From contig JAIPAP010000006.1 in NCBI GenBank assembly GCA_021740045.1, forward strand, positions 1 to 56,777: a stretch of 56,777 bases of DNA, read 5' to 3'. This stretch comes from Bacteroidales bacterium. Lineage in GTDB: Bacteria; Bacteroidota; Bacteroidia; Bacteroidales; JAIPAP01. A program made the position numbers and the translations under genes. The notes beneath the pieces are model-generated. The model saw only the letters and a list, made by a program, of their open reading frames with translations, did not search any database and was not told the origin of the DNA. Of this stretch, positions 24,505 through 45,600 are shown piece by piece; positions within the stretch are counted from its first letter, which is position 1, and each line of letters starts with the position of its first letter.

Positions 24505-24764
24505 TGTTTTACAGGTTTTTGAATTAAGAAATTGAAACTGAACCTTAAAGGTAATAAATAATAACGATGAGTTACTTTCTTTTGTTTAACTTTTTTATTA
24601 ATTTTAAAGCATCATTTGGTTACCGAATTTCGCGCAAGAGATTACTGGTTGAATACTAAACACATATTACTATCCGAAGTCCAATGCCCAATCAAGCGGG
24701 TAATAAGATGATTACCGCGGCAACCGATGATCTGAAAAATATTAACCATGATAAAACAAACGCC

Positions 24765-27779: not shown

Positions 27780-27871
27780 TGATAAAACACAAATGCCTGT
27801 CCGGTGCAGCAGAGAGGCTTTTGTAATTTATAAGGCTAATATGACACTGCCAAATATGAAAAAACAAACCG

Positions 27872-30109
27872 ATGAAACATAAAGCAATGAAAACCTTAAT
27901 TAAACTTGTTCTTACCCCGCTTTTATTTTACCTGTTTTATACGGGCGCTATTGCTCAAAAACAGGCTAAATTCAGCCCGGCTAACGAACACGGCATCATA
28001 ACCGGGACCATAACCGATTCGGCAACCTCTGAACCTATATTGGGCGTGATAGTTTCCGTTGAAGGAACAGCCTTATCGGATATGTCCGGCAGTGACGGAA
28101 TCTATGCCATCGGGCAAGTGAAGCCCGGCACTCATACTGTTACCGCCACAGCCGATGATTATTACACCCGGACCAAAACAGGTGTGGTTGTTGAAGAAGG
28201 TCTGAACACCTCGGTAAACTTTATTATGACACCTGAAGTGCTTGCCCCCGAGTTACTCAGTGCCGAACCCATATTTGGTCAGGTTACACTTACCTGGGAG
28301 CCAATAGGCGGTTCCAATCGTACAGGATATTGGATTGTTTATGGCGATTGCAGCGATCCCTGTTGGACCATATTCATAAGCCAGGCCGCCATAAATGGTC
28401 AGGATATGATTGCCGGTGATGAAGTGGGGGTATTTGATGGTGAGGTTTTGGTAGGGGCTTTTACACTGGATCAAATCTGCACCGCCGAAAATCAGTTTGA
28501 AAATGACTTGATCGCCTGGAGCACTTTGCAGAATGGTGATGGATATACACCTGAGCATCCCGTAACCTTCAAGGCCTATGATGAGCAAACCAATACGATT
28601 TACGAATACGCCCAGGCTACCTATTATGATCCCTATGGTGATGCCTGGGCGGAACCGGTATTTCCCGAAGGAGAAGCTCAATACAGCATCGTCGGGTTGC
28701 AGTTTAGCGATCCCTACACACCTACCTTTAATGTTTATTCCATTGATGAAGGACTTATTGCCGGAGGATTGACGGGAATTTCTTATACCGATACCCTTGA
28801 AAACCCACAGGGGCAATACTGTTATTATGTGACCCAAATGCTGCCCAATTGTGAGGAGTCTTACCGGTCGAATATTGAATGTGCATGGTTTTACCCGCCA
28901 ACCGGATCTATTCAGGGCACAGTAAGCATTGCCGAAAACTATAATCCTGTACCTGATGCTGTAGTAACGATTGAAGGCACCGGCATATCAGCTATTACCG
29001 GTGAAGACGGAACATATGCTTTCGAGGATGTCGAGGCCGGGACGTATGATATTTCGGTTGAAATTTTTGGCTATGAAAACCAAATACAGTCAGGCGTAGA
29101 AGTATTGGAAAACGAGACTACCACAGCGGATTTTACACTGCTTCCAATGGGACCAACTATGCTCAACCTTGAACCCGGCCCCGACTATGTTACCCTCACC
29201 TGGGAACCCATCACAGGAAGTGACCGCATCTACCATTTTCAGTTTGAAGGCGGATATGGCGGTGATCCGGTTTGGACCGTATTTCTATCCGGGATTACCC
29301 ACAACGGGCAAAACATGGGCATAGGTGATGAAGTAGCTGTTTTTGACGGGGGTATAATGGTGGGTGCAACTACGCTTATCCGTGCGCCCGATTCCCTGAA
29401 CACTTTTGAAAATGATATGCTCGTATACAGCACCCTAATGAGCGGAGATGGTTTTACCCCAGGCAATCCGGTTTCCTTCAAAGGATGGCTGGAGGCCGAG
29501 CAAATGGAAGTGGAGGACTTTGAAGCTAATTATCTTAACTGGTACGGCGATGCCTGGGATGAACCGGTGTTTCCCCAGTTTGACGGCGAATACAGCATAA
29601 TCGACCTTGCCTTTAATTCACAACCTTACGAACCGGGCTTTAATGTTTATAAACTTGATGAAGGCTTGATAGCTGAACAGGTTATGGGCAATACATATGT
29701 CGACTCCATCAACTATAACCCCGGGGAAGAGTATTGCTGCTATGTTACTCAACTTTTACCCAATGGTCAGGAATCCGATTCCTCGAATATTTTATGCGTT
29801 ACTACTCGTGCAGATTTCCAATTGGTAGAAATTTCAGGAGATGAATTAACAATGATCCCTGATGAGTTAAAAAAGATGACAATTAATATCTACCCCAATC
29901 CTGCCGGCAATGAAGTGCATATTGAAACCGGCAGGAGAATGGAGTATTTCAGCATATACACAACAGCCGGTCATAAAATCAACGAGGTTGCAATGAATGG
30001 CAAATCCCATAAAACATTAAATGTATCAGACCTCAAACCTGGAATTTACTTGTTGAAGTTTTATAGCAGGGAGGGGTTGGTATTGAATAGGAAGTTACTT
30101 ATTATGTAA
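27872..30109 (+). CDS. Secreted modular paralogue: 2x (carboxypeptidase-regulatory-like + Fn3 containing domain X), T9SS type A CTD
   Basis: Signal peptide; IYPNPAG...GIYLLKF...KLLIM. Start may be 27887. Confidence 0.82.
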   Translation: MKHKAMKTLIKLVLTPLLFYLFYTGAIAQKQAKFSPANEHGIITGTITDSATSEPILGVIVSVEGTALSDMSGSDGIYAIGQVKPGTHTVTATADDYYTRTKTGVVVEEGLNTSVNFIMTPEVLAPELLSAEPIFGQVTLTWEPIGGSNRTGYWIVYGDCSDPCWTIFISQAAINGQDMIAGDEVGVFDGEVLVGAFTLDQICTAENQFENDLIAWSTLQNGDGYTPEHPVTFKAYDEQTNTIYEYAQATYYDPYGDAWAEPVFPEGEAQYSIVGLQFSDPYTPTFNVYSIDEGLIAGGLTGISYTDTLENPQGQYCYYVTQMLPNCEESYRSNIECAWFYPPTGSIQGTVSIAENYNPVPDAVVTIEGTGISAITGEDGTYAFEDVEAGTYDISVEIFGYENQIQSGVEVLENETTTADFTLLPMGPTMLNLEPGPDYVTLTWEPITGSDRIYHFQFEGGYGGDPVWTVFLSGITHNGQNMGIGDEVAVFDGGIMVGATTLIRAPDSLNTFENDMLVYSTLMSGDGFTPGNPVSFKGWLEAEQMEVEDFEANYLNWYGDAWDEPVFPQFDGEYSIIDLAFNSQPYEPGFNVYKLDEGLIAEQVMGNTYVDSINYNPGEEYCCYVTQLLPNGQESDSSNILCVTTRADFQLVEISGDELTMIPDELKKMTINIYPNPAGNEVHIETGRRMEYFSIYTTAGHKINEVAMNGKSHKTLNVSDLKPGIYLLKFYSREGLVLNRKLLIM

Positions 30110-30182: not shown

Positions 30183-30515
30183 ATGAGAGTGCACTTGATC
30201 AAGAAACAAACAATTGAGGATTATATTATTAAAAATGCACGAAGTAAAGCATCGTTTGAGACTTGGTACTCAATTTTGTATAGAGCCGATTGGAATTTAC
30301 CCAAAGATATAATTGCAACATTTAACAGTGCTGACATTCTTGGAAAAGGTTCTAATCGTGTAGTATTTAATATTGGTGGTAACAATTATAGACTGATTTG
30401 CCGCTACTATTTTGGAAAAACAAGAGTTCATTTGTTCGTAAAATGGATAGGTACTCATGCAGAGTATACAGCGCTTTGTAATAAAGGAAATCAATACACA
30501 GTGCAATTATATTAG
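30183..30515 (+). CDS. higB: Type II TA toxin, HigB family
   Basis: F.SADIL...RVVFNIGGNNYRLI...FVKWIGTHAEY. Confidence 0.92.
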   Translation: MRVHLIKKQTIEDYIIKNARSKASFETWYSILYRADWNLPKDIIATFNSADILGKGSNRVVFNIGGNNYRLICRYYFGKTRVHLFVKWIGTHAEYTALCNKGNQYTVQLY

Positions 30516-30529
30516 TGAAATGAAGAGAA

Positions 30530-30943
30530 ATGAGTGAAACAAAAACCCTAAAGTATACTGTAATCAAAAGCAAGGACCAATATAACCGGTATTGCGAAAT
30601 ACTGGAAGAATTGGTGACAGTTTACGGTGAACAAGACCAGGAAGAAATAGAGCTGTTATCGTTGCTCATTGATAAATGGGATGAAGAACATAATTCGTTT
30701 TATGATAAGGATCCTATTTCCTTGCTTAAAGCCTTAATGGATGAACATAAGCTCAAGTCAAAAGACCTGATTAACATTTTAGACCTTTCAAAAGCTACGG
30801 TTTCTAAAATTTTAAATTACCACAAGGGCTTATCAAAATCGACAATTCGAAAGCTATCGGAATACTTCAATGTTTCCCAGGAAGCGTTTAATCGCCCTTA
30901 TAAATTGAAAAATGAAGTAAATAGGAAACATGGAGACATTTAG
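30530..30943 (+). CDS. higA: Type II TA antitoxin, HigA family (HTH)
   Basis: IKSKDQY...IELLSLLIDKWDEEH...DPISLLKALM...VSKILN; lies downstream of the toxin. Confidence 0.9.
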   Translation: MSETKTLKYTVIKSKDQYNRYCEILEELVTVYGEQDQEEIELLSLLIDKWDEEHNSFYDKDPISLLKALMDEHKLKSKDLINILDLSKATVSKILNYHKGLSKSTIRKLSEYFNVSQEAFNRPYKLKNEVNRKHGDI

Positions 30944-30945
30944 TT

Positions 30946-31310
30946 AGCACGCGATGCAATCGCGCGCCAGCGGGCGGGTTTCATAATAATAAGAATTGAG
31001 CAATTGTATGGGTAAGTGTTGTTACACTTCAGCCCAATATTCTTGCAAAGACGAGTATTGGCGCGGGTTTCAGGCGGGTTGTGCTAAGGATTAGTAATTG
31101 TTCTAAAGCATCGTGATGCAGGAATTTAACGCGTGCCCGGTAAAGCTCATCGTTTGGAACGAGGTTTTTGCCAGGGCTTTAGCTGGAGCGGATTTGTAAT
31201 CCGCTCCTTTTGGCTGCAACAAGGGTTTGAAGCCGTTGGAATTGTGTATAATGTCGGGCGCGGATTTGAAATCCGCGCCAGCAGGGAACGCGCTGCAAAC
31301 GCTCGCCAGC
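30946..31310. repeat. Cluster of about 26-bp REP-like palindromes ending in GCCAGC or starting GCTGG
   Basis: Copies at 30946-30971, 31182-31207 (opposite orientation), 31257-31282 and 31285-31310. Confidence 0.8.
31059..31163 (+). repeat. 104-105 nt hairpin element, copy A
   Basis: TGGCGCGGGTTTCAGGC...TGCAGGAATTTAACGCGTGCCC...TCGTTTGGAACGAG. Confidence 0.8.
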
Positions 31311-31409
31311 CGGTGGGTTGCGAGGCGCTCTTGAAACGTTATCGGTTAACATCAAAACAAATCATACCATAACCTTCCCACTTCGCAACCCACTTTTCTG
31401 CTTAACCGC

Positions 31410-33236
31410 CTACTCCTTAAAAATCAACTGCTGATTTTTGTCGTCATTCCAGGCATTCATCATCTTCCTGAAATCGGGGTATTGCGCAGGCGAGATTTGG
31501 CCGGCCTCGATTTCAATGGATCGTTCCATATAAATTTTGCCGTTTTCCTCTTCAATCTTAATTTCAAGTTTCCCAAAGCTGGTTTCCATTTCCAACTCCT
31601 TGCCCGGGGTAACCAATGTCCAGCCTTCCGGGATTTCAATTTCCAGTTCATATTCTTCTTCCATCGGTTGCGGCACCTCGAGAGGAACTTCGCGCTCAGC
31701 CGCCATGCCTTCCATATGCCAGGAAGCAACGCCTTTCCGGAATGAAGGCACGCCCAGGAATAGATAATTGGCCTGCTGTCTCATGATGCCCTTCAGCTCA
31801 AAATCAAATTGCACCCCGGTTTCATCCTGATCCATTGTTAAAATCCGGACATCCTTAACATGTTTTTTGGATAAACCATTTAAATATCCATACCATGCTT
31901 CATTGTTATCCACCAATTTAAAATATGGATTATGTGCCCCTTCCAATTCCACAGTAGAAAAGCCGCTTATATTCCGGTCTTCATCGATGCGCAGGCTTAC
32001 CTCCATGCTTAGTTCATTTTCCGGTTCATTCACATCATGCGAACGCATGGCCTTGCCGGGCTTCAGGTCGACCAGGCGGTGACCAAACAGATCATAAGCC
32101 AGGTTTTGATCGGTGGATTTTTCAGAATACAGATAAAGATCTTTATCATCATCTTCCGGGAGATGAACAATCACTTCTTTCATGCTTGAAAGGTTACCCA
32201 ATCCCTTATCATAAAACCGGTTATTGAATACGGCACAAGGCAAGGCTTCAATCCCGGCTTCTTCATACATTTTCGAGAGCAGGACGGCCTTTTCCACCTG
32301 CGTACCTCCATTGCTTTTCCAAACCTCATTTGGGGTGCGGGCACGGAAACCTATGTGATGCATGGGTATGTTGTAATCCTCCATTTCATCCGCTACCATG
32401 TGATGAAGCTTAATCGTCAGGTCCCATTCATCCTTGGCATCTGCCTTTGCCTTTTCAACGGCTGTTTTGATCTGATCATCCAGTTCGGCTTTAAATGCCT
32501 GCTGACCGGTGAGGAAAACATACTCGGCTTCCAGGTTTTGAGCCGTGGAAAACATGATGCGCGGGAGATGTAGCCCATCTTCCGGCTGATGAGCCGCCCT
32601 TGAACGGGCTGCCAGGTCAGTTACAGTCCAGGTGTATACATCCATGCCGTCTTGGGTGGTTTTGTCCGGTTCTCCGGCAAAGTTGTAATGCACATGCCTA
32701 AGGTTTTTTCCTGTGGGTACCTTAACGATCACCTTCACCTCATCCACCGGCGAGGATTCCGAAAGCACTTCATTGCCGATCATAAAGGGCATGAAGTCTT
32801 TATTGCTATGCAACACATAATCAAGTTCAATGGTCGCGCCAACTTCCAGGCCGGTGTGGGTCACAACCATTTCCCGCAAATGATTGTAAGCCGGAATGCC
32901 GTCGGCCCAGCGGGGTAATACCTCATTAAAGGCATTTTCGGGCGAGGGCCTTTTCGTGCCATCGGCCATGGTGGTTACCGACTTGTTGATTTCCACTTCC
33001 TGGTATTCGGGATTATATACGATAAAGGGTTCGCCATAAAGCCGGTTAAAAGCGAAATGAGTTTTGATCTCCAGCTTTTTGTAATAATGAAAATCAAAAC
33101 TGCCGTCTTCATGCAGGGTATACTCCTTGATGATTTTATGAAAACGGGCGTCAGGTTCTTTGTTTGCCTGCACGGTTAGCATTCCAAAAGCCAGGCTGAT
33201 CAACAGAAATATATATCTTTTCTTCATGATGCGCAT
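31410..33236 (-). CDS. DUF3857 + transglutaminase-like protein, apparently lacking the catalytic Cys
   Basis: GLEVGATIELDY DUF3857 motif; GGTQVEKA where the neighbour has GVCKDKA. Confidence 0.75.
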   Translation of the reverse strand: MRIMKKRYIFLLISLAFGMLTVQANKEPDARFHKIIKEYTLHEDGSFDFHYYKKLEIKTHFAFNRLYGEPFIVYNPEYQEVEINKSVTTMADGTKRPSPENAFNEVLPRWADGIPAYNHLREMVVTHTGLEVGATIELDYVLHSNKDFMPFMIGNEVLSESSPVDEVKVIVKVPTGKNLRHVHYNFAGEPDKTTQDGMDVYTWTVTDLAARSRAAHQPEDGLHLPRIMFSTAQNLEAEYVFLTGQQAFKAELDDQIKTAVEKAKADAKDEWDLTIKLHHMVADEMEDYNIPMHHIGFRARTPNEVWKSNGGTQVEKAVLLSKMYEEAGIEALPCAVFNNRFYDKGLGNLSSMKEVIVHLPEDDDKDLYLYSEKSTDQNLAYDLFGHRLVDLKPGKAMRSHDVNEPENELSMEVSLRIDEDRNISGFSTVELEGAHNPYFKLVDNNEAWYGYLNGLSKKHVKDVRILTMDQDETGVQFDFELKGIMRQQANYLFLGVPSFRKGVASWHMEGMAAEREVPLEVPQPMEEEYELEIEIPEGWTLVTPGKELEMETSFGKLEIKIEEENGKIYMERSIEIEAGQISPAQYPDFRKMMNAWNDDKNQQLIFKE

Positions 33237-33251
33237 TTTTAACAGTTTAAC

Positions 33252-35204
33252 TTATTTTTTCAGGATGACAGGATTTTCGGCAAATTCTTTTTGCTTGGCT
33301 ACAGCTTCGCGGAACGAGGGCCAGTCTTCGGGCTTATAAACCCGTTTTTTGAAGCTCAGGTTTTGCTCCATGATGAGTTTGTCACCGTTCAGGCGGTAAC
33401 TTACCTCATAATCAGCGCCGCTGCCTTCTCCTTTTCCATTTTCAGGGTGATAAACAATATGCTCATAACCGGGCAGTTCGATGGTTTCCTTTAACTCAGC
33501 CAGGCGGGAACAACGGTCGCGGAAGGCATATTTACGCTCTTTTATATTGGTGGAGAAGTACAGATGTGACATCCCCCTGCTGAATAGCTTTTTGGCAACC
33601 AGCGGGGTAAAGATCAACTCGTCATCCGTGATGGTGGCATAATCCGGGATGCTGTACTTCATGGTGATCTCAATGGGGCCCTCCATGTATTCATACGGAT
33701 TGCCGTAATCCATTTTTTTAATTTCTGCATTAGGTGCTACCCGCAGCAGTTGCGCCTTCAGGTTCTTTTCCCATTGCTGCCGGAAACCGGAGGTAAACAT
33801 ACGGCGGATGGCAGCATCCGATTGACCTTCGGCAGTGAGGGTGAAGCTTCCTTTCAGGGTTCCGTCTTTTTCAATTTCCGATTCACCGGTTATTCTGAAA
33901 TAATGATCTTCGGGTGGTGATATAGGGGTTTTTGCCAAGTCATGCCCCTCCGGGAGGCCGGGCAGATAATTCTGCTGCTGCTCGGCACTCGACCATAACT
34001 CCCTAAGGAAAGGCACCCAGGTTGGGTCGAGCAGATGGAGCTTGCCATCGGAAAGGCGCACCAGGGTGACGCTATGGTTAAACTGATCGGCCGGGATGTC
34101 CTCGATGCGGGAACCGGCCATGGTCATAGCCGCATACGACTCGAAGCCGGCGGCCCGTAGCATGGTGATGAGCATACCGGCTTTATCCTTACAAACTCCA
34201 CAACGGTCGCGGAAAATGGTTTCGCCTTTGTGAAGGGTATAACCTTCGCCTTCGCCCATGGAAAGCCCCGAATAACGGATGTTATCGGCTACCCAATGGG
34301 TAAGGATGGAAACCGAATCCATTTCGGTGTCGGCGTCTTCCAGTAATTCATCCACTTTGGCCTTGATCTCCGGGGTCCATTCAAAGCTGCCGTAATCTTC
34401 ATTAACGCCGTAAAACCAGCGCGATTTAGCTTCCCAATCGGGACTGGTGGTAAGCAGCAGTTTGGGAGCGACATTGGAAGTGGCTACCATGCGTGGCTCC
34501 CGGTCAAAAGGTGTGATATCCTTTTTGGAAAAGCTATAGATCATATGCTCATCGCCATCAACCCTCACCTTCGATTGTACTTCACCATGGTAGAATTGAT
34601 ACTGCAGAAACTTGTCTTTAGGAATGCGCACTTCATAAACCTTTTCCTTAACCGGATTGGAGTTCCAGAATTCGACAATGTCGTAATAATGGCCCCGCAT
34701 GGGTGGGATGTAGCGTTCATCATCATCCTGCTGCAAAAGGGCATAGGTAAAACCTTTGCGGAAAAGAAAAACCTCCACGGCATCGCCCGGTTCCAGGCGG
34801 CCCACTTCCAGCAACTTTTCGCGGGCGCCCCAATAGATCATTCGCGCCGGAGCCGGGTAGTCTTTCACCTTGCTGGTATCCACCACTTCAGTACTGCCGT
34901 CTTTGCGGTGTATCACGATCTTTTTAATATCCACATAAGCCGAAAGCGGGTCATAACCGAACTCAATGGCATTTACATCCAGCGCTCCCTTTGGGGTGAG
35001 CACCTTATAAAGCCTGTGCATGTTTACGTAACTCAGGCCGCTTTCCTGCACATCGGCATGGGTGCTGTCGAACACTACCAGCAGGTCCTGGTTGGGATAG
35101 TCGTTAGCGCAGCCTGCCTTTTTGATCAAATCTTTGACCGGATCAGCTTTCGCAAGCTGAAAGCTGAGGAGTAAACCGAGTAGTATAAAAACAATTCTTC
35201 TCAT
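33252..35204 (-). CDS. DUF3857 + transglutaminase-like protein with intact Cys-His-Asp
   Basis: WVADNIRY, GVCKDKA, FNHSV, LLDPT. Confidence 0.85.
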   Translation of the reverse strand: MRRIVFILLGLLLSFQLAKADPVKDLIKKAGCANDYPNQDLLVVFDSTHADVQESGLSYVNMHRLYKVLTPKGALDVNAIEFGYDPLSAYVDIKKIVIHRKDGSTEVVDTSKVKDYPAPARMIYWGAREKLLEVGRLEPGDAVEVFLFRKGFTYALLQQDDDERYIPPMRGHYYDIVEFWNSNPVKEKVYEVRIPKDKFLQYQFYHGEVQSKVRVDGDEHMIYSFSKKDITPFDREPRMVATSNVAPKLLLTTSPDWEAKSRWFYGVNEDYGSFEWTPEIKAKVDELLEDADTEMDSVSILTHWVADNIRYSGLSMGEGEGYTLHKGETIFRDRCGVCKDKAGMLITMLRAAGFESYAAMTMAGSRIEDIPADQFNHSVTLVRLSDGKLHLLDPTWVPFLRELWSSAEQQQNYLPGLPEGHDLAKTPISPPEDHYFRITGESEIEKDGTLKGSFTLTAEGQSDAAIRRMFTSGFRQQWEKNLKAQLLRVAPNAEIKKMDYGNPYEYMEGPIEITMKYSIPDYATITDDELIFTPLVAKKLFSRGMSHLYFSTNIKERKYAFRDRCSRLAELKETIELPGYEHIVYHPENGKGEGSGADYEVSYRLNGDKLIMEQNLSFKKRVYKPEDWPSFREAVAKQKEFAENPVILKK

Positions 35205-35307
35205 GGTTATTTATTTGATTGATTAATTTGATTTTTCCGGGGTAAATATAGGGATTTTGTGGATTTTTGAATGATGAGTTTCTACGACTTTTTTCTTTGC
35301 AGTTAGT

Positions 35308-35411
35308 TGGTGCGCGATTCAGGCGGCTTGCAAATGGTTTTGTAAATGTTCCAAGGCCTTGTCTTGCAGTGGCCTAACGCGTACCTGGTTAACTCTCCCG
35401 TTTTGAACGAG
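35308..35411 (+). repeat. 104-105 nt hairpin element, copy B
   Basis: TGGTGCGCGATTCAGGC...TGCAGTGGCCTAACGCGTACC...CCGTTTTGAACGAG. Confidence 0.8.
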
Positions 35412-35750
35412 ATTTTCTTAAAGCTTTTTAAAAGCGCCATAATTAGCTTTATACACATTAGCTTCGGTTTTATCTCCTCCATTTTCAAATATGATTTCTT
35501 GCTTATACTCTGATATAGAACATTCTTGCTTTACATAGGAGCTTTTATATAATAATTTCATCAAAATTTGCATCTTATGATGATCTGTATTAAATTTACA
35601 ACGGATATAACATTTTTTTGAAGGTGAAACTTTGCTATTTATACTATACCCTGCCACTGCTTTACTATTATAAAAAAGGTTGAATTGCCCTGATAACAAC
35701 TAAATTTATAATAACATAATCATACTAATGAGTAACCAATTCTAATAATT

Positions 35751-38700
35751 ATGAAAAGAGCAGTACTAATTATTGCCGCATTTTTTGCCTGTACCTTTAT
35801 TTTCGGGCAAAACAGCAACCCTAAAGAAAACGGCCGTGCCAGCCAAACCATTGAATTGGAAATCGGCTACCGTTTTGTATCCTCCCACATCCTGCCGGAT
35901 GATCCTGATATGCTGGTGGTGCTGGAAGAAGTGCTGGGCGATAATGTAGAATTTATCCGCAATGCCCAGGGTGAGATCATCCAAAAGGTTGGCCCCAACT
36001 GGATCAACGGCATAGGTGATTGGAATACAACTGAAGGCTATTTATTCAAGATGACCGGAGCCGAAACCCTCACCCTGAATGGCGATGTAATCGACCCTGC
36101 CACTCCGATACCCGTGCAGGCCGGATACCGGTTTGTAAGCTACCTGCCTGCGGAGCCATTGGATGCCATGGAAGCTTTTGAAAGCATAATTGGTGATGAC
36201 CTTGAGTTTATACGCAATATGTATGGCAATGTGATAAACAAGATAGGCCCCAACTGGATCAACGGCATAGGCGAAGCCCAGCCCGGGGAGTTTTACCTGG
36301 TAAAAATGCTGGGTGATGGTGAATTAATTTATCCCGGCCAAAGCCAGCCCGAATGCCCCTCCACCTTCACCGACCCCCGCGACGGGCAGGAATATGAGGG
36401 GGTACTAATCGGCGACCAATGCTGGATGGCCGAAAACCTGAATATAGGCACTATGATTCCAGGCGAAGATGATATGCAGGACAACGGAACCATTGAAAAA
36501 TACTGCTATGATGACGATGAAGCCAACTGCTATGAATACGGCGGCCTTTATCAATGGGATGAAATAATGCAATATACCACCCAGCAGGGGACGCAAGGTA
36601 TTTGTCCGCCTGGCTGGCATATTCCAACCGATGAAGAATGGATGATGCTGGAAGGTACTGTGGATAGCCAGTACGGCTATCCTGATCCCGAATGGGAACA
36701 AACCGGATTACGTGGTTTCGATGCCGGATACAACTTGAAAAGCACCAGCGGATGGGAGGGCAACGGTAACGGTTCCGATGCCTTTGGCTTTGCAGGCTTG
36801 CCGGCGGGCTTCAAGAATTTTAATGGATTTTTCTACTATCTTGGCTACAGCAGTACCTGGTGGTCTTCATCCCAGGCTAATAATTCGAGTGCTTGGGGCC
36901 GCTCTCTCCTTTACTATGATGAGCAGGTAAATCGCGGCACTAACACTAAGGATTTTGGTTTCTCCATACGTTGCCTAAAACATGAGCCCGGCCAAAACTT
37001 ACCCCCAGGCTATCCCTTTAATCCATCGCCTGAAGATGGCGCTTCCGGTCAATCCATTATTACCACACTTTCCTGGGAATGCACCGATCCCGACCAAGAC
37101 CCGATTACCTATGATGTGTATTTTGGAATGAATGAAGACCCCCAGCAGGTTGCCACAGCAATAACCGAAACTATCTATGATCCCGGTACCTTGGAATACA
37201 GCACCACCTATTACTGGAAAATCGTTGCCCATGATGATCAGGGCAACACTACCGAAGGTCTGGTATGGAGTTTTACCACTGAAGAAGAACCTCCTGAATG
37301 CCCGGCCTCCTTCACTGACCCCCGCGACGGGCAGGAATATGAAGCGGTGTTAATTAGTACCCAATGCTGGATGGCCGAAAACCTGAATATTGGGGAGATG
37401 ATTCCCGGTGCAGATGACATGCAGGACAACGGAACCATTGAAAAATACTGCTATGATGACGATGAAGCCAACTGCGACGAATACGGCGGTCTTTACCAAT
37501 GGGATGAAATGATGCAATACACCACCCAGCAGGGAACACAGGGCATTTGCCCGCCCGGATGGCATATTCCTATCGACCAGGAATGGATGATACTTGAAGG
37601 TGCAGTAGATAGCCAGTATGGTTACCCCGATCCCGAATGGGAACAAACCGGATGGCGCGGTTATGATGCGGGTTACAACCTGAAAAGCACTAACGGTTGG
37701 TATAACGACGGCAACGGTTCCGATGCCTTTGGTTATACAGCCATGCCGGCGGGCTACCGGAATGCCAATAATTCATTCTATTTTCTTGGCTACGGCAGTA
37801 ACTGGTGGTCATCATCTGTAGGTGGTGATTCTACGAGCGCCTGGGGCCGTTCCCTTTTTTACGATAATGAGCAGGTGTACCGCTACGATAACGATAAGAA
37901 TTTCGCTTTCTCCATGCGTTGCCTGAAGTATGAGACCGGCCAAAACCAACCCCCGGCCGAGCCCTCCAATCCATCACCTGAAGATGGCGCTTCCGCTCAA
38001 TCCATTATTACCCCACTTTCCTGGGAATGCACCGATCCGGACCAAGACCCGATTACCTATGATGTGTATTTTGGAATGAATGGAAACCCTCAGCAGGTTG
38101 CCACCGGATTAACCGAAACCACTTATGTTCCGGGGACTTTGGAATTTAACACCACTTATTACTGGAAAATCATAGCCCATGATGACCATGCCAACACTAC
38201 TGAAGGTCCGGTGTGGAGTTTTACCACAGAAGAAGCACCCGAGTGCCCGGAAACCTATACAGATCCCCGCGATGGACAGGAATACGAAGCGGTGTTAATT
38301 GGTAATCAATGCTGGATGGCCGAAAACCTGAATATTGGCTCTATGATCCCAGGAGTAGATGACATGCAGGATAACGATACCCTTGAAAAATATTGTTATA
38401 ATGATGACCCTGTGAATTGTGATACCCTAGGTGGCCTTTACCAGTGGGATGAAATGATGCAATACACCACCCAGCAGGGGACACAAGGCATTTGCCCGCC
38501 CGGATGGCATATCCCTACAGACGTTGAGTGGATGATGCTGGAAGGTATGGTAGATAGCCAGTACGGTTATCCTGATCCCGAATGGGAAACACAAGGTTGG
38601 CGAGGTTTTGATGCTGGTTATAAACTAAAAAGCACTAGCGGTTGGTATGCCAACGGTAACGGCTCCGATGCCTTTGGCTTTGCGGCCTTGCCGGCGGGAG

Positions 38701-39824
38701 AACGGACAATCAGTAGCACGTTTTACGGTATTGGTCAATGGGGTTATTGGTGGTCCTCATCAGAAAATAGTCCCTGGACTTCCTGGATCAGGTTCATGGG
38801 TTCCAGTAGCGAACAGGTATACCGCCAGTATAATTCTAATGATGGCGGGTTATCTATACGTTGCCTAAAACATGAGCCCGGCCAAAACTTACCCCCGGTC
38901 TATCCCTTTAATCCATTGCCTGAAGATGGCGCTTCCGGTCAATCCATTATTACCACACTTTTCTGGGAATGCACCGATCCGGAGCAGGACCCGCTTACTT
39001 ATGATGTGTATTTTGGAATGAATGAAGACCCCCAGCAGGTTGCCACAGCAATAACCGAAACTATCTATGGTCCCGATACCTTGGAATACAGCACCACCTA
39101 TTACTGGAGAATCGTTGCCCATGATGACCAGGGAAACACTACTGAAGGACCGGTATGGAGTTTTACTACAGCAGAAGAAACCACTAGCTGCCCTGCTACC
39201 TTCACCGACCCCCGCGACGGGCAGGAGTATGAAGCCGTTCAAATTGGAGACCAATGCTGGATGGCCGAAAACCTGAATATTGGGGCGATGATTCCCAGTG
39301 TAGATCAAATGCAGGATAACGGTACCCTTGAAAAATATTGTTATGATGATGACCCTGTGAATTGTGATACCCTGGGTGGCCTTTACCTGTGGGGTGAAAT
39401 GATGCAATACACCATTCAGCAGGGAACCCAGGGCATTTGCCCCGAAGGATGGCATATCCCCTCTGATGAAGAATGGATGATGCTGGAAGGCACTGTAGAT
39501 AGCCAGTATGGCTACCCCGATCCCGAATGGGAATATACTGGAAGCCGCGGCTACGATGCCGGCTACAACCTGAAAAGCACCAGCGGTTGGGAAGATAACG
39601 GCAACGGCTCCGATGCCTTTGGTTTTACGGGCTTGCCAGCAGGCCACCTGGATTCCGGTGGCTGGTTCTACGATCTTGGCTACTACGGCTTCTGGTGGTC
39701 CTCATCGGAGAGTGATGGTTCTTACGCCTGGTACCGCTACTTGCTTTACCACAAAGAAAAAGTGGGCCGCTATGCTTGCAGCAAGGATTACAGTTTTTAC
39801 GTGCGTTGCCTAAAGAACGATTAA
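35751..39824 (+). CDS. Secreted protein: tandem domain Y + four FISUMP (Fib_succ_major) domains separated by three Fn3-like domains; putative DGR target
   Basis: 4x TDPRDGQEY...QCWMAENLN...GGLYxW...GICPxGWHIP...WWSSS...RCLK. Protein ends at the last FISUMP domain. Confidence 0.9.
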   Translation: MKRAVLIIAAFFACTFIFGQNSNPKENGRASQTIELEIGYRFVSSHILPDDPDMLVVLEEVLGDNVEFIRNAQGEIIQKVGPNWINGIGDWNTTEGYLFKMTGAETLTLNGDVIDPATPIPVQAGYRFVSYLPAEPLDAMEAFESIIGDDLEFIRNMYGNVINKIGPNWINGIGEAQPGEFYLVKMLGDGELIYPGQSQPECPSTFTDPRDGQEYEGVLIGDQCWMAENLNIGTMIPGEDDMQDNGTIEKYCYDDDEANCYEYGGLYQWDEIMQYTTQQGTQGICPPGWHIPTDEEWMMLEGTVDSQYGYPDPEWEQTGLRGFDAGYNLKSTSGWEGNGNGSDAFGFAGLPAGFKNFNGFFYYLGYSSTWWSSSQANNSSAWGRSLLYYDEQVNRGTNTKDFGFSIRCLKHEPGQNLPPGYPFNPSPEDGASGQSIITTLSWECTDPDQDPITYDVYFGMNEDPQQVATAITETIYDPGTLEYSTTYYWKIVAHDDQGNTTEGLVWSFTTEEEPPECPASFTDPRDGQEYEAVLISTQCWMAENLNIGEMIPGADDMQDNGTIEKYCYDDDEANCDEYGGLYQWDEMMQYTTQQGTQGICPPGWHIPIDQEWMILEGAVDSQYGYPDPEWEQTGWRGYDAGYNLKSTNGWYNDGNGSDAFGYTAMPAGYRNANNSFYFLGYGSNWWSSSVGGDSTSAWGRSLFYDNEQVYRYDNDKNFAFSMRCLKYETGQNQPPAEPSNPSPEDGASAQSIITPLSWECTDPDQDPITYDVYFGMNGNPQQVATGLTETTYVPGTLEFNTTYYWKIIAHDDHANTTEGPVWSFTTEEAPECPETYTDPRDGQEYEAVLIGNQCWMAENLNIGSMIPGVDDMQDNDTLEKYCYNDDPVNCDTLGGLYQWDEMMQYTTQQGTQGICPPGWHIPTDVEWMMLEGMVDSQYGYPDPEWETQGWRGFDAGYKLKSTSGWYANGNGSDAFGFAALPAGERTISSTFYGIGQWGYWWSSSENSPWTSWIRFMGSSSEQVYRQYNSNDGGLSIRCLKHEPGQNLPPVYPFNPLPEDGASGQSIITTLFWECTDPEQDPLTYDVYFGMNEDPQQVATAITETIYGPDTLEYSTTYYWRIVAHDDQGNTTEGPVWSFTTAEETTSCPATFTDPRDGQEYEAVQIGDQCWMAENLNIGAMIPSVDQMQDNGTLEKYCYDDDPVNCDTLGGLYLWGEMMQYTIQQGTQGICPEGWHIPSDEEWMMLEGTVDSQYGYPDPEWEYTGSRGYDAGYNLKSTSGWEDNGNGSDAFGFTGLPAGHLDSGGWFYDLGYYGFWWSSSESDGSYAWYRYLLYHKEKVGRYACSKDYSFYVRCLKND
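36348..39824 (+). repeat. Intragenic tandem repeat, 945-bp period
   Basis: DPRDG codons start at 36372, 37317, 38262 and 39207. Confidence 0.9.
39645..39824 (+). other. Putative DGR variable region (VR)
   Basis: 42 of the last 59 sense codons end in C/T. Variable positions are mostly NNY codons between fixed W/R/S/C scaffold codons, as expected from an AAY-rich template. Confidence 0.65.
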
Positions 39825-39862
39825 TTGACAACCTGCCAGCCGGCTGGTTTGAATATTTGACC

Positions 39863-39900
39863 ATTAAAATCCCGCCTGTGGCGGGATTTTAATTTTTTTT
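39863..39900 (+). terminator. Hairpin / intrinsic terminator after the FISUMP gene
   Basis: ATTAAAATCCCGCC-TGT-GGCGGGATTTTAAT followed by a T tract. Confidence 0.8.
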
Positions 39901-40060
39901 ATGCAGGTAAAAGAAATACTGGAAAACGAAGATCAGAAAAATATTTACCTATATAAAACTGGATTATTCTGGCGGGTATATGAATATTCGGCGTTTCATT
40001 TTTTACGCATATTAGCGTATTCAAGCTGATAATAAGGTATTATAGAGTGGTACGTAGGAC
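39901..40060 (+). pseudogene. Frameshifted, truncated remnant of a MutS-N-terminal-like (MSL-type) DGR accessory gene
   Basis: MQVKEILENEDQKNIYLYKTGLFWRVYEYSAFHF, then after a 1-nt shift in the T6 run (39999-40004) THISVFKLIIRYYRVV. Not in the ORF track. End approximate. Confidence 0.6.
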
Positions 40061-40106
40061 GCCTGAGACAATCCCTCGGCAATCAGTATTTTGCAGAACA
40101 GTGAGC

Positions 40107-40210
40107 TGGAGCACGTTTCAGGCGGAGTGCATTTGGTTTCCTCAATGCGCTGGCTCGTTGGATTGCAGGGACTTAACGCGTACCCATAAAATTCCCTCGT
40201 TTTGAACGAG
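40107..40210 (+). repeat. 104-105 nt hairpin element, copy C
   Basis: TGGAGCACGTTTCAGGC...TGCAGGGACTTAACGCGTACCC...CTCGTTTTGAACGAG. Confidence 0.8.
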
Positions 40211-40295
40211 ATGGAAAAATTGTTTACCAACATTAGGATTGGTTTTTTTACCAATGGGCCGTGTGTTATCTCGCTAAAAGCGAGTGAAATCAATC

Positions 40296-40321
40296 GGCAC
40301 GCGTTGCAAACGCGCGCCAGC
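40296..40321 (-). repeat. REP-like palindrome
   Basis: Minus strand GCTGGCGCGCGTTTGCAACGCGTGCC. Confidence 0.8.
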
Positions 40322-40456
40322 CAACGGGTTGTGGAGTTCTGAAGAAAAATTAGTAATTGATAGAGATGCCGGAGAAGCGTATTTTATTCAGGATATAGAA
40401 TGCACAATGAAAATCCTTATCCGTAAGCTTAACGCAGAACAGTTCGATGGCGCGCG

Positions 40457-42320
40457 GTGTGCCGTGAGTAAAGCGTTCTTTACATAACTGCAAATAAGAT
40501 GGTGGAGCGGGCCCACCGGAGTCTCTCTGCAGGGAGCGGCTTCAAACAACTGTTTTAATGCATGGGAAGTGATTCTTGTGTGTTGAGCGAAAACAGAAAA
40601 GGCTGAACGATTATCAGTCATGTGCGGATAAAAGAGATGAACGAAAGTGAACCTTTGATGAAGCATCGAGAAATCTAAACTATCTGCCAAAACCACGATT
40701 TCGCGCGGTTAGTGGGATAAGCATAGCGGGAACCTGTTTACTGGCTATGTGGTAGACGTTGTTAAGAAGGCATGACTTTTATCCAGGCTTGTTTGCGGAA
40801 CACGGGAAGCCTCTTGCTGATGCAAAAAGGAAAGTACAAGCGTAAAAGCAAGGCAATTACTAATGCAGCAAGAGGTGGCGGATGAACTCGTAGTAGCGAA
40901 GAAGCTTCTGTAACGGAAGTGGAGCGAAGGGGTTCAATCATACAGTTTTCAACTTATAAACAACTCATCAGATGAGAAGGATTTTTAACGAGAAAACAAA
41001 ACCCTTACCCATCAGTAAGGAAATGGTGTGGAAGGCTTACAAGAAAGTCAGATCGAACAAAGGAAGTGCAGGAGTTGACAATGAGAGCATCCAAAAGTTC
41101 GAGGAGAACCTCTCGGACAACCTGTATAAACTTTGGAACCGGCTGGCTTCAGGGAGCTATTTCCCACCGGCAGTCAAAGAACAGGAGATTAACAAGGATA
41201 ACGGGAAGAAAAGAAAGCTCGGCATCCCGACAGTCTCCGACAGGATTGCCCAACAGGTGATAAAGGAATACCTGGAACCAAGACTGGAAAAGGAATTCCA
41301 TGAATCATCCTATGGGTATCGACCATTCAGGAATGCGCATCAAGCCTTGACAAAAGTCAGGGAAAATGCCCGCAAATATGCCTGGGTAATCGACCTTGAC
41401 ATAACGGCCTTCTTTGATCATGTCGATCACAAGAAGCTGTTAACCGCCCTTGAATGGCACGCCAAGGAGAAATGGGTCAACATGTATGTAAAGAGATGGT
41501 TAGAAGCGCCAATAGCCAAGGCTAATGGTGAATTAGAAGAAAAGAAAGGCAGAGGCACTCCACAAGGCGGTGTTATCAGTCCTTTACTGGCTAACCTATA
41601 CCTTCATTATACATTTGACAAATGGATGGCCAAGCACTTTCCAACCATTACCTTTGTACGCTATGCAGATGACATCGTCATTCATTGCGTAAGTGAAAAA
41701 CAATCGCTGTATGTTCTGGGAAAACTCAAACAAAGGCTGTCAGATTGCAATTTAACCATACACCCGGAAAAGACTCATGTGGTTTACTGCAAGGCTAGTA
41801 AGCGAAAACCAGTTCTAACAGGGAAAAGGGTAAAATTCGATTTTCTCGGTTTCAGTTTTCGCCCTGAAAGCAAGTGGTCAAAACATGGGGATATGTCCCT
41901 GGGGTATGACTGCAAGATAAGCCAGAAATCGTATTCGAAGATCGTTAAGGAAATTAAACGCACTCGTTTCGACAGATGGGCCAAATCGTGGCAGGAGATT
42001 GCAGATTTACTGAACAGCAAAATACGGGGATGGGTCCAATACTATGATGGATTCCGTTCCCGTGCAATGTCGAAAGTTTTCCACCGACTGCACAACCGAC
42101 TGATAAAATGGATTATGAACCGGTACAAAAGGTTTAGAGGCAAGAAACGGAAAGCGATAGCTTACCTAAAGTTTATCTATCGCCGTTATCCTTATTTGTT
42201 CTACCACTGGAGTATCGGTTACCATTTGGTATAGTTTGTATGATAGGAGCCGTATGACGGGAGACTGTCACGTACGGTTCTGTGAGAGGCATGGGGTGAA
42301 ACTCCCTGTGCCTACTCGAC
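40457..42320 (+). mobile_element. Group II intron (IIB, bacterial class D / RmInt1-like), 1864 nt
   Basis: 5' GTGTG; domain V GAGCCGTATGACGGGAGACTGTCACGTACGGTTC at 42247-42280; domain VI ending CCTACTCGAC; EBS1 40702-40707 and EBS2 40664-40669 complementary to the 5' exon; removal restores a repeat copy. Confidence 0.93.
40972..42234 (+). CDS. ltrA: Group II intron reverse transcriptase/maturase without endonuclease domain
   Basis: NKGSAGVD...NLYKLWNRLASGSYFPP, LGIPTVSDRIAQ, GTPQGGVISPLLAN, RYADD, FDFLGF, X domain IRGWVQYY. Confidence 0.95.
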   Translation: MRRIFNEKTKPLPISKEMVWKAYKKVRSNKGSAGVDNESIQKFEENLSDNLYKLWNRLASGSYFPPAVKEQEINKDNGKKRKLGIPTVSDRIAQQVIKEYLEPRLEKEFHESSYGYRPFRNAHQALTKVRENARKYAWVIDLDITAFFDHVDHKKLLTALEWHAKEKWVNMYVKRWLEAPIAKANGELEEKKGRGTPQGGVISPLLANLYLHYTFDKWMAKHFPTITFVRYADDIVIHCVSEKQSLYVLGKLKQRLSDCNLTIHPEKTHVVYCKASKRKPVLTGKRVKFDFLGFSFRPESKWSKHGDMSLGYDCKISQKSYSKIVKEIKRTRFDRWAKSWQEIADLLNSKIRGWVQYYDGFRSRAMSKVFHRLHNRLIKWIMNRYKRFRGKKRKAIAYLKFIYRRYPYLFYHWSIGYHLV

Positions 42321-42415
42321 TTTCAGGCTAATTGCAATTCATTTCTTCAATGTACTGGCCTTATCAAATGCAGGTGCTTAACGCGTGCCCAATAAAACCC
42401 CTCGTTTGTAAAGAG
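42321..42415 (+). repeat. 104-105 nt hairpin element, copy D (3' part; its first 9 nt are 40448-40456)
   Basis: TGGCGCGCG|TTTCAGGC...TGCAGGTGCTTAACGCGTGCCC...CTCGTTTGTAAAGAG; 9+95 = 104 nt. Confidence 0.85.
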
Positions 42416-42579
42416 ATTTTAAATCCACTTGCCAGAGGCTGGATAGATAGAACAATTGCACAAGGTTTGCAAACCTTTCCCAGGTCTAAAGGTGCAGCTT
42501 CACGGTTGGAAACCCTATACCTGCATTAAAATAGTATTCAAAAGTTTTCAACACCGCCGTTTCTTTATACGATCCCTTA

Positions 42580-42587
42580 TATTTTTG
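42580..42587 (+). promoter_or_regulatory. -7 promoter element for the SNF2 gene
   Basis: TATTTTTG matches TAnnTTTG. Confidence 0.55.
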
Positions 42588-42604
42588 TAGAAAGAAAGAA
42601 TATT

Positions 42605-45600
42605 ATGGCTCAATCATTCCATAATTCACAGGTAAAGACCAAATTATCGATGATGCTGGAATTCATTGATTTTGGCTCGCATGCCCGGGGTGCGCATTTA
42701 TTCGAAAAAGGACATGTAAAATCCTGGCGGGTGAATAATGAAAACGTTACAATAGAAGTGGATGTGCTCGCTTCGGCATCCAATAAAACCTACAAGGTGG
42801 AGCTTACCTTTAATAATTTGCTTAAAAGTACTTGTTCATGTCCCTACAACTGGGGACTATGTAAACATACGGCAGCGGCAGCCTACAAGTTACTGCAACA
42901 TGTTCATAACAAGAATACACCCATATTTGCCCTGGACCAGTCGAATACCGTAGTAGTAATTCCCTTGCTTACCGAGGAATGGATATCGGGTAACACACCA
43001 CCTCGCTTAAAAGGTGAAGTTAAACGGCTTGAAGAAAATGCCGGTTTTGAACTACAGAAGATCGAACAAGGCGAAATTGTGGTAAAACTGCAAAGCGGAA
43101 GACATTCTTATCCGGTAAGTTTCAAGGTGGAAAAACAGGACACATCCGTCATTACATCCTGCAAATGCAAGGAAGGACGTTTTCCGCTTTGCAAACATAA
43201 GCTGGCAGCATTTCGCTACCTCCATACAAATAAGGGTGAAGACGCCCTGGAACAATCCCTGAACTGGTATTATGAGAAAAAGGCCATTATCGACGATTTG
43301 GGGCTTTCGGAAGAGGTTGTTAATAAATATTCAAAGCTTTTTAAGTTTTACTTTGAAAACCGCGACATTTACCTAATGCAGACTCACGGTTCTCTGCTAT
43401 TGAAACATGAGCTTGATATAATACCCCAAGCCAAGGTGATCCCTGAGCAAGTGGAACCCCCGGTAATGGATGATTTTCAGGAGCTGGGGTTGGCCTATGT
43501 GCTTAAATTCAAATATGTTGATCATCCTGTTCCCGATTTGGAAGTGATTCCGGCTTTTGGAAAAATGAACAAGAATAAAGACCGCATAAAAAGCCATTTT
43601 GAAAGAATTGAAAACCCGCTTGAAAACACGGTATTCTTAGAATTGGCCAGGGCAAAGGATTATGATATCATCAGGGAAGCCGGAAAGCTCTACAAAGTTA
43701 TGGCAAAAATTCAGTATTTTGATTATTACGAAGACCCCTATGAATATATCAATATGCTGAGGGTGCTCAATATCCTCAATCCTTTGTTAAATAGATTATC
43801 CGGTAGTTTGACCTATATTTTCGAGGATGACGGTCTGGACATGAAGCTTAAGGATTGCCGGCATGTTTATATTTCGGAAGACCCCATGAAGGCTAAAATT
43901 AAACAAACGTCCAATGAGCTTCTGCAGGAACTTCATATCACTTATTATCAAAAGGATAAAAAGCATGATTTAAGCCCGGAGGATACTGCTTATTTTTGGT
44001 TGTTGAAAAAGGGCCAAATCATCTTTCCCTGGCATAATGCCGGCACCCTTTACCTGTATTCCCTCTCGGATACCGGGCATTCCGGAAAGCTCAGGTTTTT
44101 GAGCGAGCACTATAATGCTGTATTTGAGCGGTTTGTTCAGTTTTTTCATGATAAGGTTGAAATGGAGTTGGCCGATGCCAATAAGGAGTCGCATCAGGAT
44201 GTTGAACCCGACAGGAAAATCTACATCAAGGAACAAAGCGGCTATATTATGTTCTTTCCGGTATTAGCCTATGACGAAAAAGAAATCAGTGCAGTTCATC
44301 CTTCCGAAGGATACCTTTTTCACCAAAAAGATGAGCAGGTCATTAAGTATGAACGCAAGCCGGAGCTCGAAACGGATTTCTTAAACTTGTTCAAAAACAC
44401 CCATTCTGCCTTTGACCAACAGCAGCAAGACAACTACTATTACTTATCACCCGAACAGATGCTGGAGGACAACTGGTTTATTGACTTTTATGAACAATGC
44501 AAATCCCATGAGATCGAAGTATATGGATTCAAGGATTTGAAATCCATTAAATATTACCCGGCCCATCCCAGTGTAAGTTATTCCATAAAATCGGGTGAAG
44601 ATTGGTTTGATATGGAAATGCAGGTGGATTACGACAATCACCCGGTTTCACTGAAAGACCTTCGGAAAGCAGTGATCAACAAAGAGAAAATGGTACCCAT
44701 AGGCAATGGTATGTATGGAATGCTCCCGGAGGATTTTGTCAGAAAGTTCGAAACCGCCTTGAAATTCGGGGAAATTGATGAGGATAAGGTCTCTTTCCAA
44801 AAATCGCAGTTTTCCATTATTCACTCCCTGCTCGATCAGCAATCGGATGGGCAAATTGCCGAGGAACTGGCTGAAAAAATGCAGTTGCTCAAATCGTTTA
44901 ATGAGATCACTGCCATAAATCCCCCTTCAAAACTCAAAGCTGAATTGCGTGATTACCAGAAAGCGGGTTTGTCATGGCTGGCTTTCCTGGCTAAGTACAA
45001 TTTTGGCGGTTGCCTGGCCGATGATATGGGCCTGGGCAAAACAGTGCAAATGCTGGCCTTTTTCCTCCACTTGAAAGAACAACAACCACGCAAAAAATAC
45101 ACGCACCTGGTGGTTTGCCCTACAACCCTGTTGTTCAACTGGGAAAACGAGATTGCCAAATTTGCTCCCCAACTGAAAACCGATGTGCATTGGGGAAATA
45201 CCCGGAATTTTGAAAAAAAGGAATGGAGGAAAAAAGACGTTATCCTCACCACTTACGGCACCATGGTAAACGACATTGAACAACTGCATGAATTTCGTTT
45301 TACCACGGTTGTATTCGATGAATCGCAGGCCATGAAAAACCCATCTTCATTGCGGTTTAAAGCGGCTTTATTGATTCAAGCCGATTACCGCTTTTCGCTC
45401 ACCGGCACACCCATCGAAAACAATACCATTGAGCTTTTCTCGCAAATGCATGTGCTCAACAAAGGGCTGTTAGGGAATTTCAACTTTTTCCGAAAAACTT
45501 ACGGCAAAAACATGAACGGGGACGGGAGCACACATTTGCGGGCCGAACTGCGTAAGATGGTATATCCGTTTATTCTGAGGCGAACCAAAGAAAAGGTAGC

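Follow-up and report, generated by a model that had tools for sequence, protein, structure and literature searches.

The four structured repeats in a 56,777-nucleotide (nt) stretch of the genome of a Bacteroidales bacterium (GenBank assembly GCA_021740045.1, contig JAIPAP010000006.1; the whole stretch is called the window below) are probably repetitive extragenic palindromic sequences (REPs) of a Bacteroidota REP/RAYT system of subclass 2.6, in which RAYT stands for REP-associated tyrosine transposase. They belong to a genome-wide family of two-hairpin units whose basal part covaries strongly across genomes and whose copies flank a RAYT gene. REP/RAYT systems are well studied in Proteobacteria, and subclass 2.6 is already described in outline; what is new here is a derivative with a long loop, seen in no other genome that was searched, a second hairpin defined as belonging to the unit, and the fit between a group II intron and the REP that it splits. 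The locus gives subclass 2.6 a concrete, testable repeat architecture—foot, stem, spacer and second hairpin—backed by cross-genome covariation; this architecture, and a genome in which long-loop units are more numerous than plain ones, open the way to asking which parts of the unit its enzyme requires. For annotation, the message is that the repeats should be labelled neither as an integron nor as a new RNA gene.

The repeat family and the RAYT gene flanked by its copies

Iterated nhmmer searches of the whole assembly (3.9 Mb in 161 contigs; the genome is labelled G000 and the window is its contig C125) returned 27 matches at E ≤ 0.01, 23 of them longer than 75 nt. The four plus-strand copies that an initial annotation of the window had marked, here called A to D, are all present where it had placed them, with nhmmer E-values of 1e-25 to 3e-19, far beyond chance. 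A covariance model, R1, was built from the 19 intact copies (alignment A2) using the structure proposed in that annotation. R1 matches 33 sites on 12 contigs. Of these, 19 are long and intact (109-110 nt; 81.5-124.2 bits), four are long but damaged, the 3' part of copy D included, and 10 are short (55 nt; 34.8-52.9 bits). The long form thus makes up about two thirds of the units, and no copy lies inside any open reading frame (ORF) of at least 100 aa.

The basic unit consists of two hairpins on a single strand, with a foot (GCTGG), a 10-bp G+C-rich stem with a short loop, a spacer of about 11 nt and a 6-bp hairpin (CTCGTT-TGT-AACGAG). In short copies, the stem CGCGCGTT/AACGCGTG is closed by CC. 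Long copies differ from the short REP by an insert of 57-58 nt at the tip of the first hairpin, where it separates the TTT of the loop from the TAAC; both forms share the same foot, stem, spacer and small hairpin, and in cmsearch alignments of short copies from related and metagenome loci, 57 model positions collapse to 2. The extension prolongs the stem through a 2-nt bulge, three to four AGGC/GCCT pairs, an internal loop and a TGCA/TGCA helix, and then opens into a variable centre of 32-33 nt. The first hairpin of a long copy accordingly measures about 85 nt, and a definition of REPs as small palindromes of 20-40 bp with a short loop describes the 10 short copies and does not describe the 19 long ones.

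The layout read in the initial annotation holds across the family, namely the outer stem GGCGCGCGTT/AACGCGTGCC, the 2-nt bulge, AGGC/GCCT, TGCA/TGCA and the second hairpin CTCGTTTTGAACGAG. Pairing is kept in 90.9% of the cells of A2 (92% in the outer helix, 87% in the TGCA helix and 91% in the small hairpin), and the compensatory T-A pair noted in copy B is real (columns 6/79, UA in one of the 19 intact copies). A G.T pair in the stem is kept in all 19 long copies of A2 and in 32 of 34 matches in the cross-genome alignment. Positions T3 and G5 of the foot are invariant in A2, G1 and G4 are nearly so, and GCUGG is kept in other genomes. The short REP that had been annotated at 40296-40321 does share the outer stem, but it is inverted and has its own small hairpin, which makes the full unit longer (see the table). 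Inversion is the rule: each of the 10 short copies runs opposite to the long copies beside it, and seven of them lie 52-56 nt after a long copy, tail to tail, despite spacers of differing sequence.

The length of 109-110 nt in all 19 intact copies confirms the constancy that the initial annotation had taken, together with the divergent centre, as a sign of selection on structure. That argument stands for the basal stem and small hairpin, which covary across genomes, and falls for the centre, where conserved pairing is lacking: an all-against-all column-pair scan of columns 28-60 finds no helix of at least three pairs at 75% pairing or more, and RNAalifold leaves the centre unpaired. Mean pairwise identity is 0.94 in the 3' arm, 0.85 in the foot and 5' arm and 0.86 in the small hairpin, compared with 0.56 in the centre, whose sub-types go with different flanks. 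A profile hidden Markov model of the inner 54 columns gives no match with a meaningful E-value in the genome apart from the long copies, searches with the centres by short-word BLAST return only chance matches of 14-16 nt, and comparison by eye shows no likeness between the insert and group II intron ends. Individual copies vary in how well they fold as single-stranded DNA (ssDNA). Copy A, with a decayed stem (GGCGCGGGTT) and TGTG in place of TGCA, and copy C, also decayed in the stem (GGAGCACGTT/AACGCGTACC), fold no better than shuffled sequences (z -0.64 and -0.22), and copy B reaches z -2.14 and two consensus-like copies from other contigs z -3.3.

The initial annotation had recommended looking for a RAYT (an HUH transposase of the Y1 type) flanked by the repeats, and one such gene is present on contig C155. 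Its product, P0001, scores 31.6 bits with Pfam Y1_Tnp (cut-off 23) and 96.8 bits with NCBIfam NF047646 (REP-associated tyrosine transposase, REP_Tyr_transpos; cut-off 80). Read along the RAYT strand, the locus consists of a long copy, 77 nt, the RAYT gene, 10 nt, an inverted short copy, 47 nt and a further long copy. On C159, another long copy is followed by the same leader and a frameshifted N-terminal RAYT remnant of about 42 aa. The motifs NHLH, WQ and YIHNNP of P0001 match the subclass 2.6 signature as tabulated in PMC6006769, and H60, H62, W122 and Y143 are invariant in eight relatives. A phmmer search of PDB with P0001 alone gives no match; a profile of P0001 and seven relatives matches the TnpA structure 2ec2 (E 6.7e-5) and the E. 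coli TnpAREP structure 4er8 (E 1.7e-4).

Of 400 other genomes sampled in the order, 107 encode homologues of the RAYT (E ≤ 1e-20), and a contig scan finds homologues in Lentimicrobiaceae, Saprospiraceae, unclassified Bacteroidales/Bacteroidetes metagenome-assembled genomes (MAGs), Gillisia, Ohtaekwangia and Galbibacter. At three of these loci—genome G382 (69% identity), a Lentimicrobiaceae MAG and Gillisia limnaea—a direct REP lies upstream of the RAYT. An inverted REP lies downstream in the first two, and in G. limnaea the gene is followed by REP-like stems. All of these REPs are short forms with species-specific stems. When 34 matches from this genome and from 11 further loci are aligned, pairing is kept in 98% of cells, and both partners vary in 13 of 24 pairs (59 cells); in the small hairpin, the outermost pair alone appears as C-G, G-C, U-A and A-U across genomes. 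None of 500 shuffles reaches any of five covariation measures, and the covariation score is 0.227 versus at most 0.044 for controls with slid partners. The basal stem and small hairpin thus covary strongly across genomes.

These features agree with the subclass 2.6 REPtron as described by Quentin et al. 2018 (PMC6006769), who place the subclass mostly in Bacteroidetes and equate it with RAYT group 5 of Bertels et al. 2017. Its signature is given there as NH[LIV]H, WQ and YIH[QN]NP in a protein of about 179 aa, and its foot as GCT[AG]G instead of GTAG. The subclass 2.6 REPs in Table S1 include units with a GCTGG foot, a CGCG stem of 8 bp and a loop of 3 nt, and one near-perfect hairpin of 122 nt. 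Shared with the present system are the Bacteroidota host, a Y1/HUH protein of this size with all three motifs, a gene flanked by hairpins without GTAG, further hairpin copies elsewhere in the genome, and the GCTGG foot with a CGCG stem. The initial annotation had held that a match to a described family would remove the novelty of the repeat, and for the short REP type, listed in that Table S1, this is partly so. Two features set the present units apart: most carry the 57-58-nt apical extension with a variable centre of fixed length, unlike the near-perfect 122-nt entry, and a conserved second hairpin follows 11 nt downstream, which part 5 of Table S1 does not list. Loop variation as such has precedent, as one REP family can contain loop variants of different length, in which the inner regions reach up to 27 bp and can be self-complementary (Di Nocera et al. 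2013, PMC3733652). Different loop lengths also coexist here, but at 57-58 nt and with an unpaired centre of 32-33 nt, and we found no account in the literature of a long-loop REP in Bacteroidota.

Three other matches to Y1_Tnp in the genome are all of other kinds. One is an in-frame Y1_Tnp (IS200-like HUH) insertion in an Eco57I/MmeI-type restriction-modification methyltransferase on contig C51 (L014 1-2856, minus strand; at least 952 aa in the locus, open frame 1178 aa), with N6_Mtase at aa 194-271, Y1_Tnp at aa 350-452 (55 bits) and Eco57I at aa 667-762. The other two are small proteins of 166 aa on C14 (L012 1468-1968, plus strand) and 153 aa on C45 (L013 1396-1857, minus strand) with a Y..NQE.HH motif, resembling subclass 1.2 of Quentin et al. 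2018; around the C14 gene lie GGTGCAGCGCACC-type hairpins, perhaps a further repeat family. The RAYT locus on C155 has three paralogous permeases of the MacB/FtsX type around it.

A group II intron at the stem/loop junction

Copy D had been annotated in two pieces. Both are present, and the gap between them, left without an identity, is a group II intron of 1864 nt that starts with GTGTG, ends with CGAC and matches RF01999 at 40501-40622 (78.5 bits) and RF00029 at 42245-42320 (64.3 bits). The R1 match to the 3' part of copy D (42310-42418; 50.9 bits) begins with about 10 bases of the intron, and the repeat resumes at 42321. The insertion point, GGCGCGCG|TTT, lies between the 5' arm and the TTT of the loop. 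Family scans of the 420-aa intron protein matched reverse transcriptase and maturase domains only, and no other copy of the intron was found in the genome.

The last six bases of the 5' part of copy D, which belong to the REP 5' arm, are the intron-binding site 1 (IBS1) of this intron, and the predicted exon-binding site 1 (EBS1), CGCGCG in a stem-loop of domain I, is complementary to them. The position of EBS1 was checked on relatives with visible 5' exons, in which the same loop predicts the exon end (see the table). Among 14 loci with a visible 3' exon, the window included, two have a 3' exon that starts inside a REP. The second, L069 (G308:C11, about 1-1830), comes from another family of the order and encodes an intron protein 51% identical to that of the window. 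Its 3' exon reads TTTGCAATCCGTGCC, followed by 11 nt and a small hairpin; its 5' exon is lost at the contig end, and its EBS1 loop TCCGCG is the complement of the arm end CGCGGA expected from its REP. Exon and EBS1 together indicate that two diverged introns lie at one and the same REP junction, equally oriented, with EBS1 changing along with the local stem. This suggests that REPs can offer safe, multi-copy homing sites, with introns keeping pace as the REP changes.

Mobile elements that target REPs or other hairpins have been described before. Two of nine copies of a Pseudomonas putida group II intron lie in REPs (Tobes and Pareja 2006, PMC1525189), insertion sequence (IS) elements are also associated with REPs according to a table of that paper, and group IIC introns are found at terminators or attC sites (PMC7923331). 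The window intron with its 420-aa reverse transcriptase/maturase fits this pattern, as does the intron at L074, which sits right after a perfect hairpin. The difference lies in the recognition: here the IBS1 is the REP 5' arm, and the EBS1 of two introns follows a species-specific REP stem. Our literature search found no earlier description of such recognition. Contigs of about 200 nt from runs X3 and X4, which share 5-9% of sampled words, are nearly identical to parts of the intron.

Proposed mechanism and competing explanations

The initial annotation had left the choice between a REP-derived mobile unit, an ssDNA recombination site and an undescribed non-coding RNA. The REP-derived unit is supported by the RAYT flanked by repeats and by the structure of the long unit as a short REP with an expanded tip, and a role as an ssDNA recombination site would be implied by a REP/RAYT system. 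By analogy with E. coli TnpAREP and IS200/IS605 TnpA, we infer that the units are enzymatically processed and mobile: a single cognate HUH/Y1 enzyme, P0001, would bind the folded hairpins on ssDNA and would cut and rejoin beside the foot, allowing units to spread and be maintained. The likely recognition determinants are the foot, basal stem, spacer and small hairpin, which long and short forms have in common. For the apical extension, a single origin in this lineage is most likely; it may then have been carried along, tolerated because its place in the loop keeps it clear of the foot. The exposed junction between stem and loop is also where the group II intron of copy D has landed.

Several observations sit uneasily with this reading. 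About 33 copies is low for a REP family, and the centre holds 32-33 nt in all 19 intact copies at 56% mean identity, which pure hitch-hiking does not obviously predict. The long form is missing from 29 related RAYT loci, the part of the 107 in the order that the R1 locus survey took in, where all 15 matches measure 29-60 nt; it is also missing from 150 other genomes of the order, which yielded three short matches (53 nt) in two genomes. A metagenome pattern scan found four loci with short forms or tandem stems and no long form, using a pattern of fixed 3' arm and small hairpin that would miss diverged long forms. The GTDB family consists of this genome only, with no second genome in the set. 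Between 30000 and 43500, Logan contigs of four DNA runs show neither a joint across the intron nor a clean presence/absence joint at any copy; the contigs break at the repeats. The covariation alignment was fitted to the model structure and therefore favours it. Finally, for 19 of 23 copies the nearest ORF of at least 100 aa (crude, ATG-only calls) lies upstream on the same strand, and a T-run, defined as at least four T within 12 nt after the small hairpin, follows 10 of the 19 intact copies.

The last two points would also fit a unit that acts mainly as RNA, either as a 3'-untranslated-region stabiliser or terminator module, in which transcripts would end with the long hairpin, the small hairpin and the T-run, or as a small RNA. 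Twelve of the 19 co-oriented copies lie between convergent ORFs, the conserved G.T pair would be a normal G-U pair in RNA and makes the fold strand-specific, and REPs are described as lying mostly downstream of coding regions, where they may act as RNA elements (PMC3733652). We nevertheless consider this explanation unlikely. Four of the 23 copies, copy B included, are upstream of or divergent from the nearest ORF, the T-run is missing in nine of the 19 intact copies, and the inversion of short relative to long copies means that both halves of a doublet cannot be co-oriented with one gene. The comparison with Rfam that had been recommended agrees: in Rfam 15 no described RNA family matches the window repeats at the gathering score, nor permissively (E ≤ 1) at three copy-holding loci, and the association with a RAYT accounts for the family without any RNA role. 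An RNA-level role alongside the DNA role is possible; a look for RNA runs that contain window positions 39000-43000 returned none. It is improbable, to a slightly greater degree, that the 57-58-nt extension is a tiny mobile insert that repeatedly targets the tip of the REP hairpin, rather than one ancestral insertion amplified with the REP. The insert does have an exact position in the loop, with TTT on one side and TAAC on the other, the same junction hosts two diverged group II introns, IS elements and a group II intron are associated with REPs (PMC1525189), and centre sub-types go with different flanks. Amplification of whole composites would explain these flank-linked sub-types equally well, however, and the insert is never found outside a REP stem in this genome, was absent from all other genomes searched, has no coding capacity and shows no terminal repeats beyond the pairs that prolong the stem. 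A bolder proposal, to which we give equally little credence, takes the REP tip as a dedicated landing pad and the extension as a non-autonomous element that would home to the loop, 3 nt from where group II introns home by pairing of EBS1 with the REP arm; its fixed-length, fast-diverging centre, displayed on a conserved stem, would then be functional and confer specificity, in the manner of a guide or of the variable part of attC, and would be no passenger.

Scarcely credible is a reading of the units as attC-like sites of an integron-type cassette array on which a tyrosine recombinase acts. The likeness is one of form, an imperfect hairpin with bulged bases, conserved outer boxes, GTT/AAC triplets in the arms and a variable centre, in same-strand arrays that border accessory genes (four copies in the window, five on C155 and four on C103). 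In the attC consensus, RYYYAAC (R'') stands at the 5' side and GTTRRRY (R') at the 3' side. In the present units GTT comes first and AAC last on both strands, the reverse order, and no integron integrase was found, with the best match to TIGR02249 scoring 87.2 bits against a cut-off of 265; the absence of IntI and the reversed boxes contradict an attC identity on two defining features. The genes between copies lie on either strand, and a cognate HUH enzyme is present instead. An IS200/IS605 insertion sequence was likewise considered and rejected. Its left-end and right-end (LE/RE) hairpins resemble the present system in the Y1 HUH enzyme, the imperfect one-strand hairpins and the profile match to TnpA structures 2ec2, 2f4f and 2xo6, but P0001 scores 21.8 bits with NF033573 (cut-off 55), the gene with its ends is not repeated (one intact gene and one remnant of about 42 aa), and the hairpins far outnumber the gene.

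Clusters, coordinates and neighbouring genes

The doublets described above combine into larger arrangements. Copy C and the short REP 53 nt after it form one doublet in the window, tail to tail, and the short REP in turn lies 124 nt before copy D. The resulting composite—long copy, 53 nt, inverted short copy, about 125 nt, long copy—recurs on C34, and on C155 it recurs from the inverted short copy onward, with no upstream long copy found there. A mosaic of about 620 bp forms tandem repeats on C103, and composites are scattered on C35, C87 and C142. At the other end of the repeat-bearing region, the window holds a BIME-like cluster at 30946-31311 (BIME, bacterial interspersed mosaic element) with five units of two stem types, copy A included; its stem-only REP is inverted relative to the long copies and lies 88 nt upstream of copy A. 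Inverted pairs with fixed spacing, clusters of mixed type and composites duplicated across loci are reminiscent of REPINs and BIMEs, that is, REP doublets and mosaic clusters. Here the doublet halves are unequal, one long and one short, the 52-56-nt spacer differs in sequence, and copies number in the tens, not hundreds. Both terms are used in PMC6006769 and PMC3733652. Coordinates of all features are collected in the table.

Table. Repeat units, intron and RAYT features, with the EBS1 loops of related introns. Positions refer to the window unless a contig is given.
Feature	Position	Strand	Details
Stem-only short REP	30946..30968	-	AGCACGCGATGCAATCGCGCGCC then AGC; fuzzy match to short REP stem
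Long-loop REP, copy A	31057..31166	+	R1 97.5 bits; alignment A2
Sister-type short REP	31182..31207	+	GCTGG-AGCGGATT-TGT-AATCCGCT-CC; read directly; family foot GCTGG
Two inverted short REP stems	31256..31311	-	GGGCGCGGATTTGAAATCCGCGCC-AGC and GGAACGCGCTGCAAACGCTCGCC-AGC
Long-loop REP, copy B	35306..35414	+	R1 101.1 bits
Long-loop REP, copy C	40105..40213	+	R1 96.8 bits
Short two-hairpin REP, 55 nt	40267..40321	-	R1 50.4 bits
Copy D, 5' part	40446..40456	+	foot and 5' arm GATGGCGCGCG
Group II intron	40457..42320	+	RF01999, RF00029
Predicted EBS1	40702-40707	+	CGCGCG in domain I stem-loop; alignment with relatives
Intron-encoded reverse transcriptase/maturase, 420 aa	40972..42234	+	Pfam RVT_1, GIIM; TIGR04416 418 bits (cut-off 300)
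Copy D, 3' part	42321..42418	+	loop, apical extension, 3' arm, spacer, small hairpin
P0001, HUH/Y1 RAYT gene, 187 aa	C155:30074-30637	-	Pfam and NCBIfam profiles
Related intron L074			loop (EBS1) TGCAAG; 5' exon end CTTGCA
Related intron L064			loop (EBS1) CTTCGC; 5' exon end GCGAAG
Related intron L062			loop (EBS1) TGTGC; 5' exon end GCACA
Related intron L066			loop (EBS1) TATGTG; 5' exon end CATATA (one G.U)

Sister REP types, with a GCTGG foot and GGATT stems GCTGGAGCGGATTTGTAATCCGCTCC and GGGCGCGGATTTGAAATCCGCGCCAGC, occur in the window at 31182-31282 and on C103, C35 and other contigs; a second subclass 2.6 RAYT for them was not found in the genome. A DNA contig from run X1 joins a short-REP end (like that at 40331) through 39 other letters to a long-copy start (like that at 31059), and thus represents another short/linker/long locus. 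The small ORF 40284-40487, which runs from the linker into copy D, was discarded as a gene candidate, as it is not conserved in paralogous copies, is interrupted by a stop in one of them and has no Pfam match.

Around the copies in the window, the accessory genes (24684-30109 and 35751-39824) encode two proteins with type IX secretion system (T9SS) tails and CarboxypepD_reg repeats as well as Fib_succ_major-domain proteins. Copy B is solo and sits in the divergent region upstream of the Fib_succ_major gene of the window, whose product has 1357 aa; a 742-aa protein with this domain is encoded beside the RAYT locus (L001 11491-13719). Directly upstream of the REP cluster that holds copy A lies a likely toxin-antitoxin pair (30183-30943), composed of a HigB-type toxin (110 aa, PF09907) followed by a Cro/C1-type helix-turn-helix gene (137 aa).

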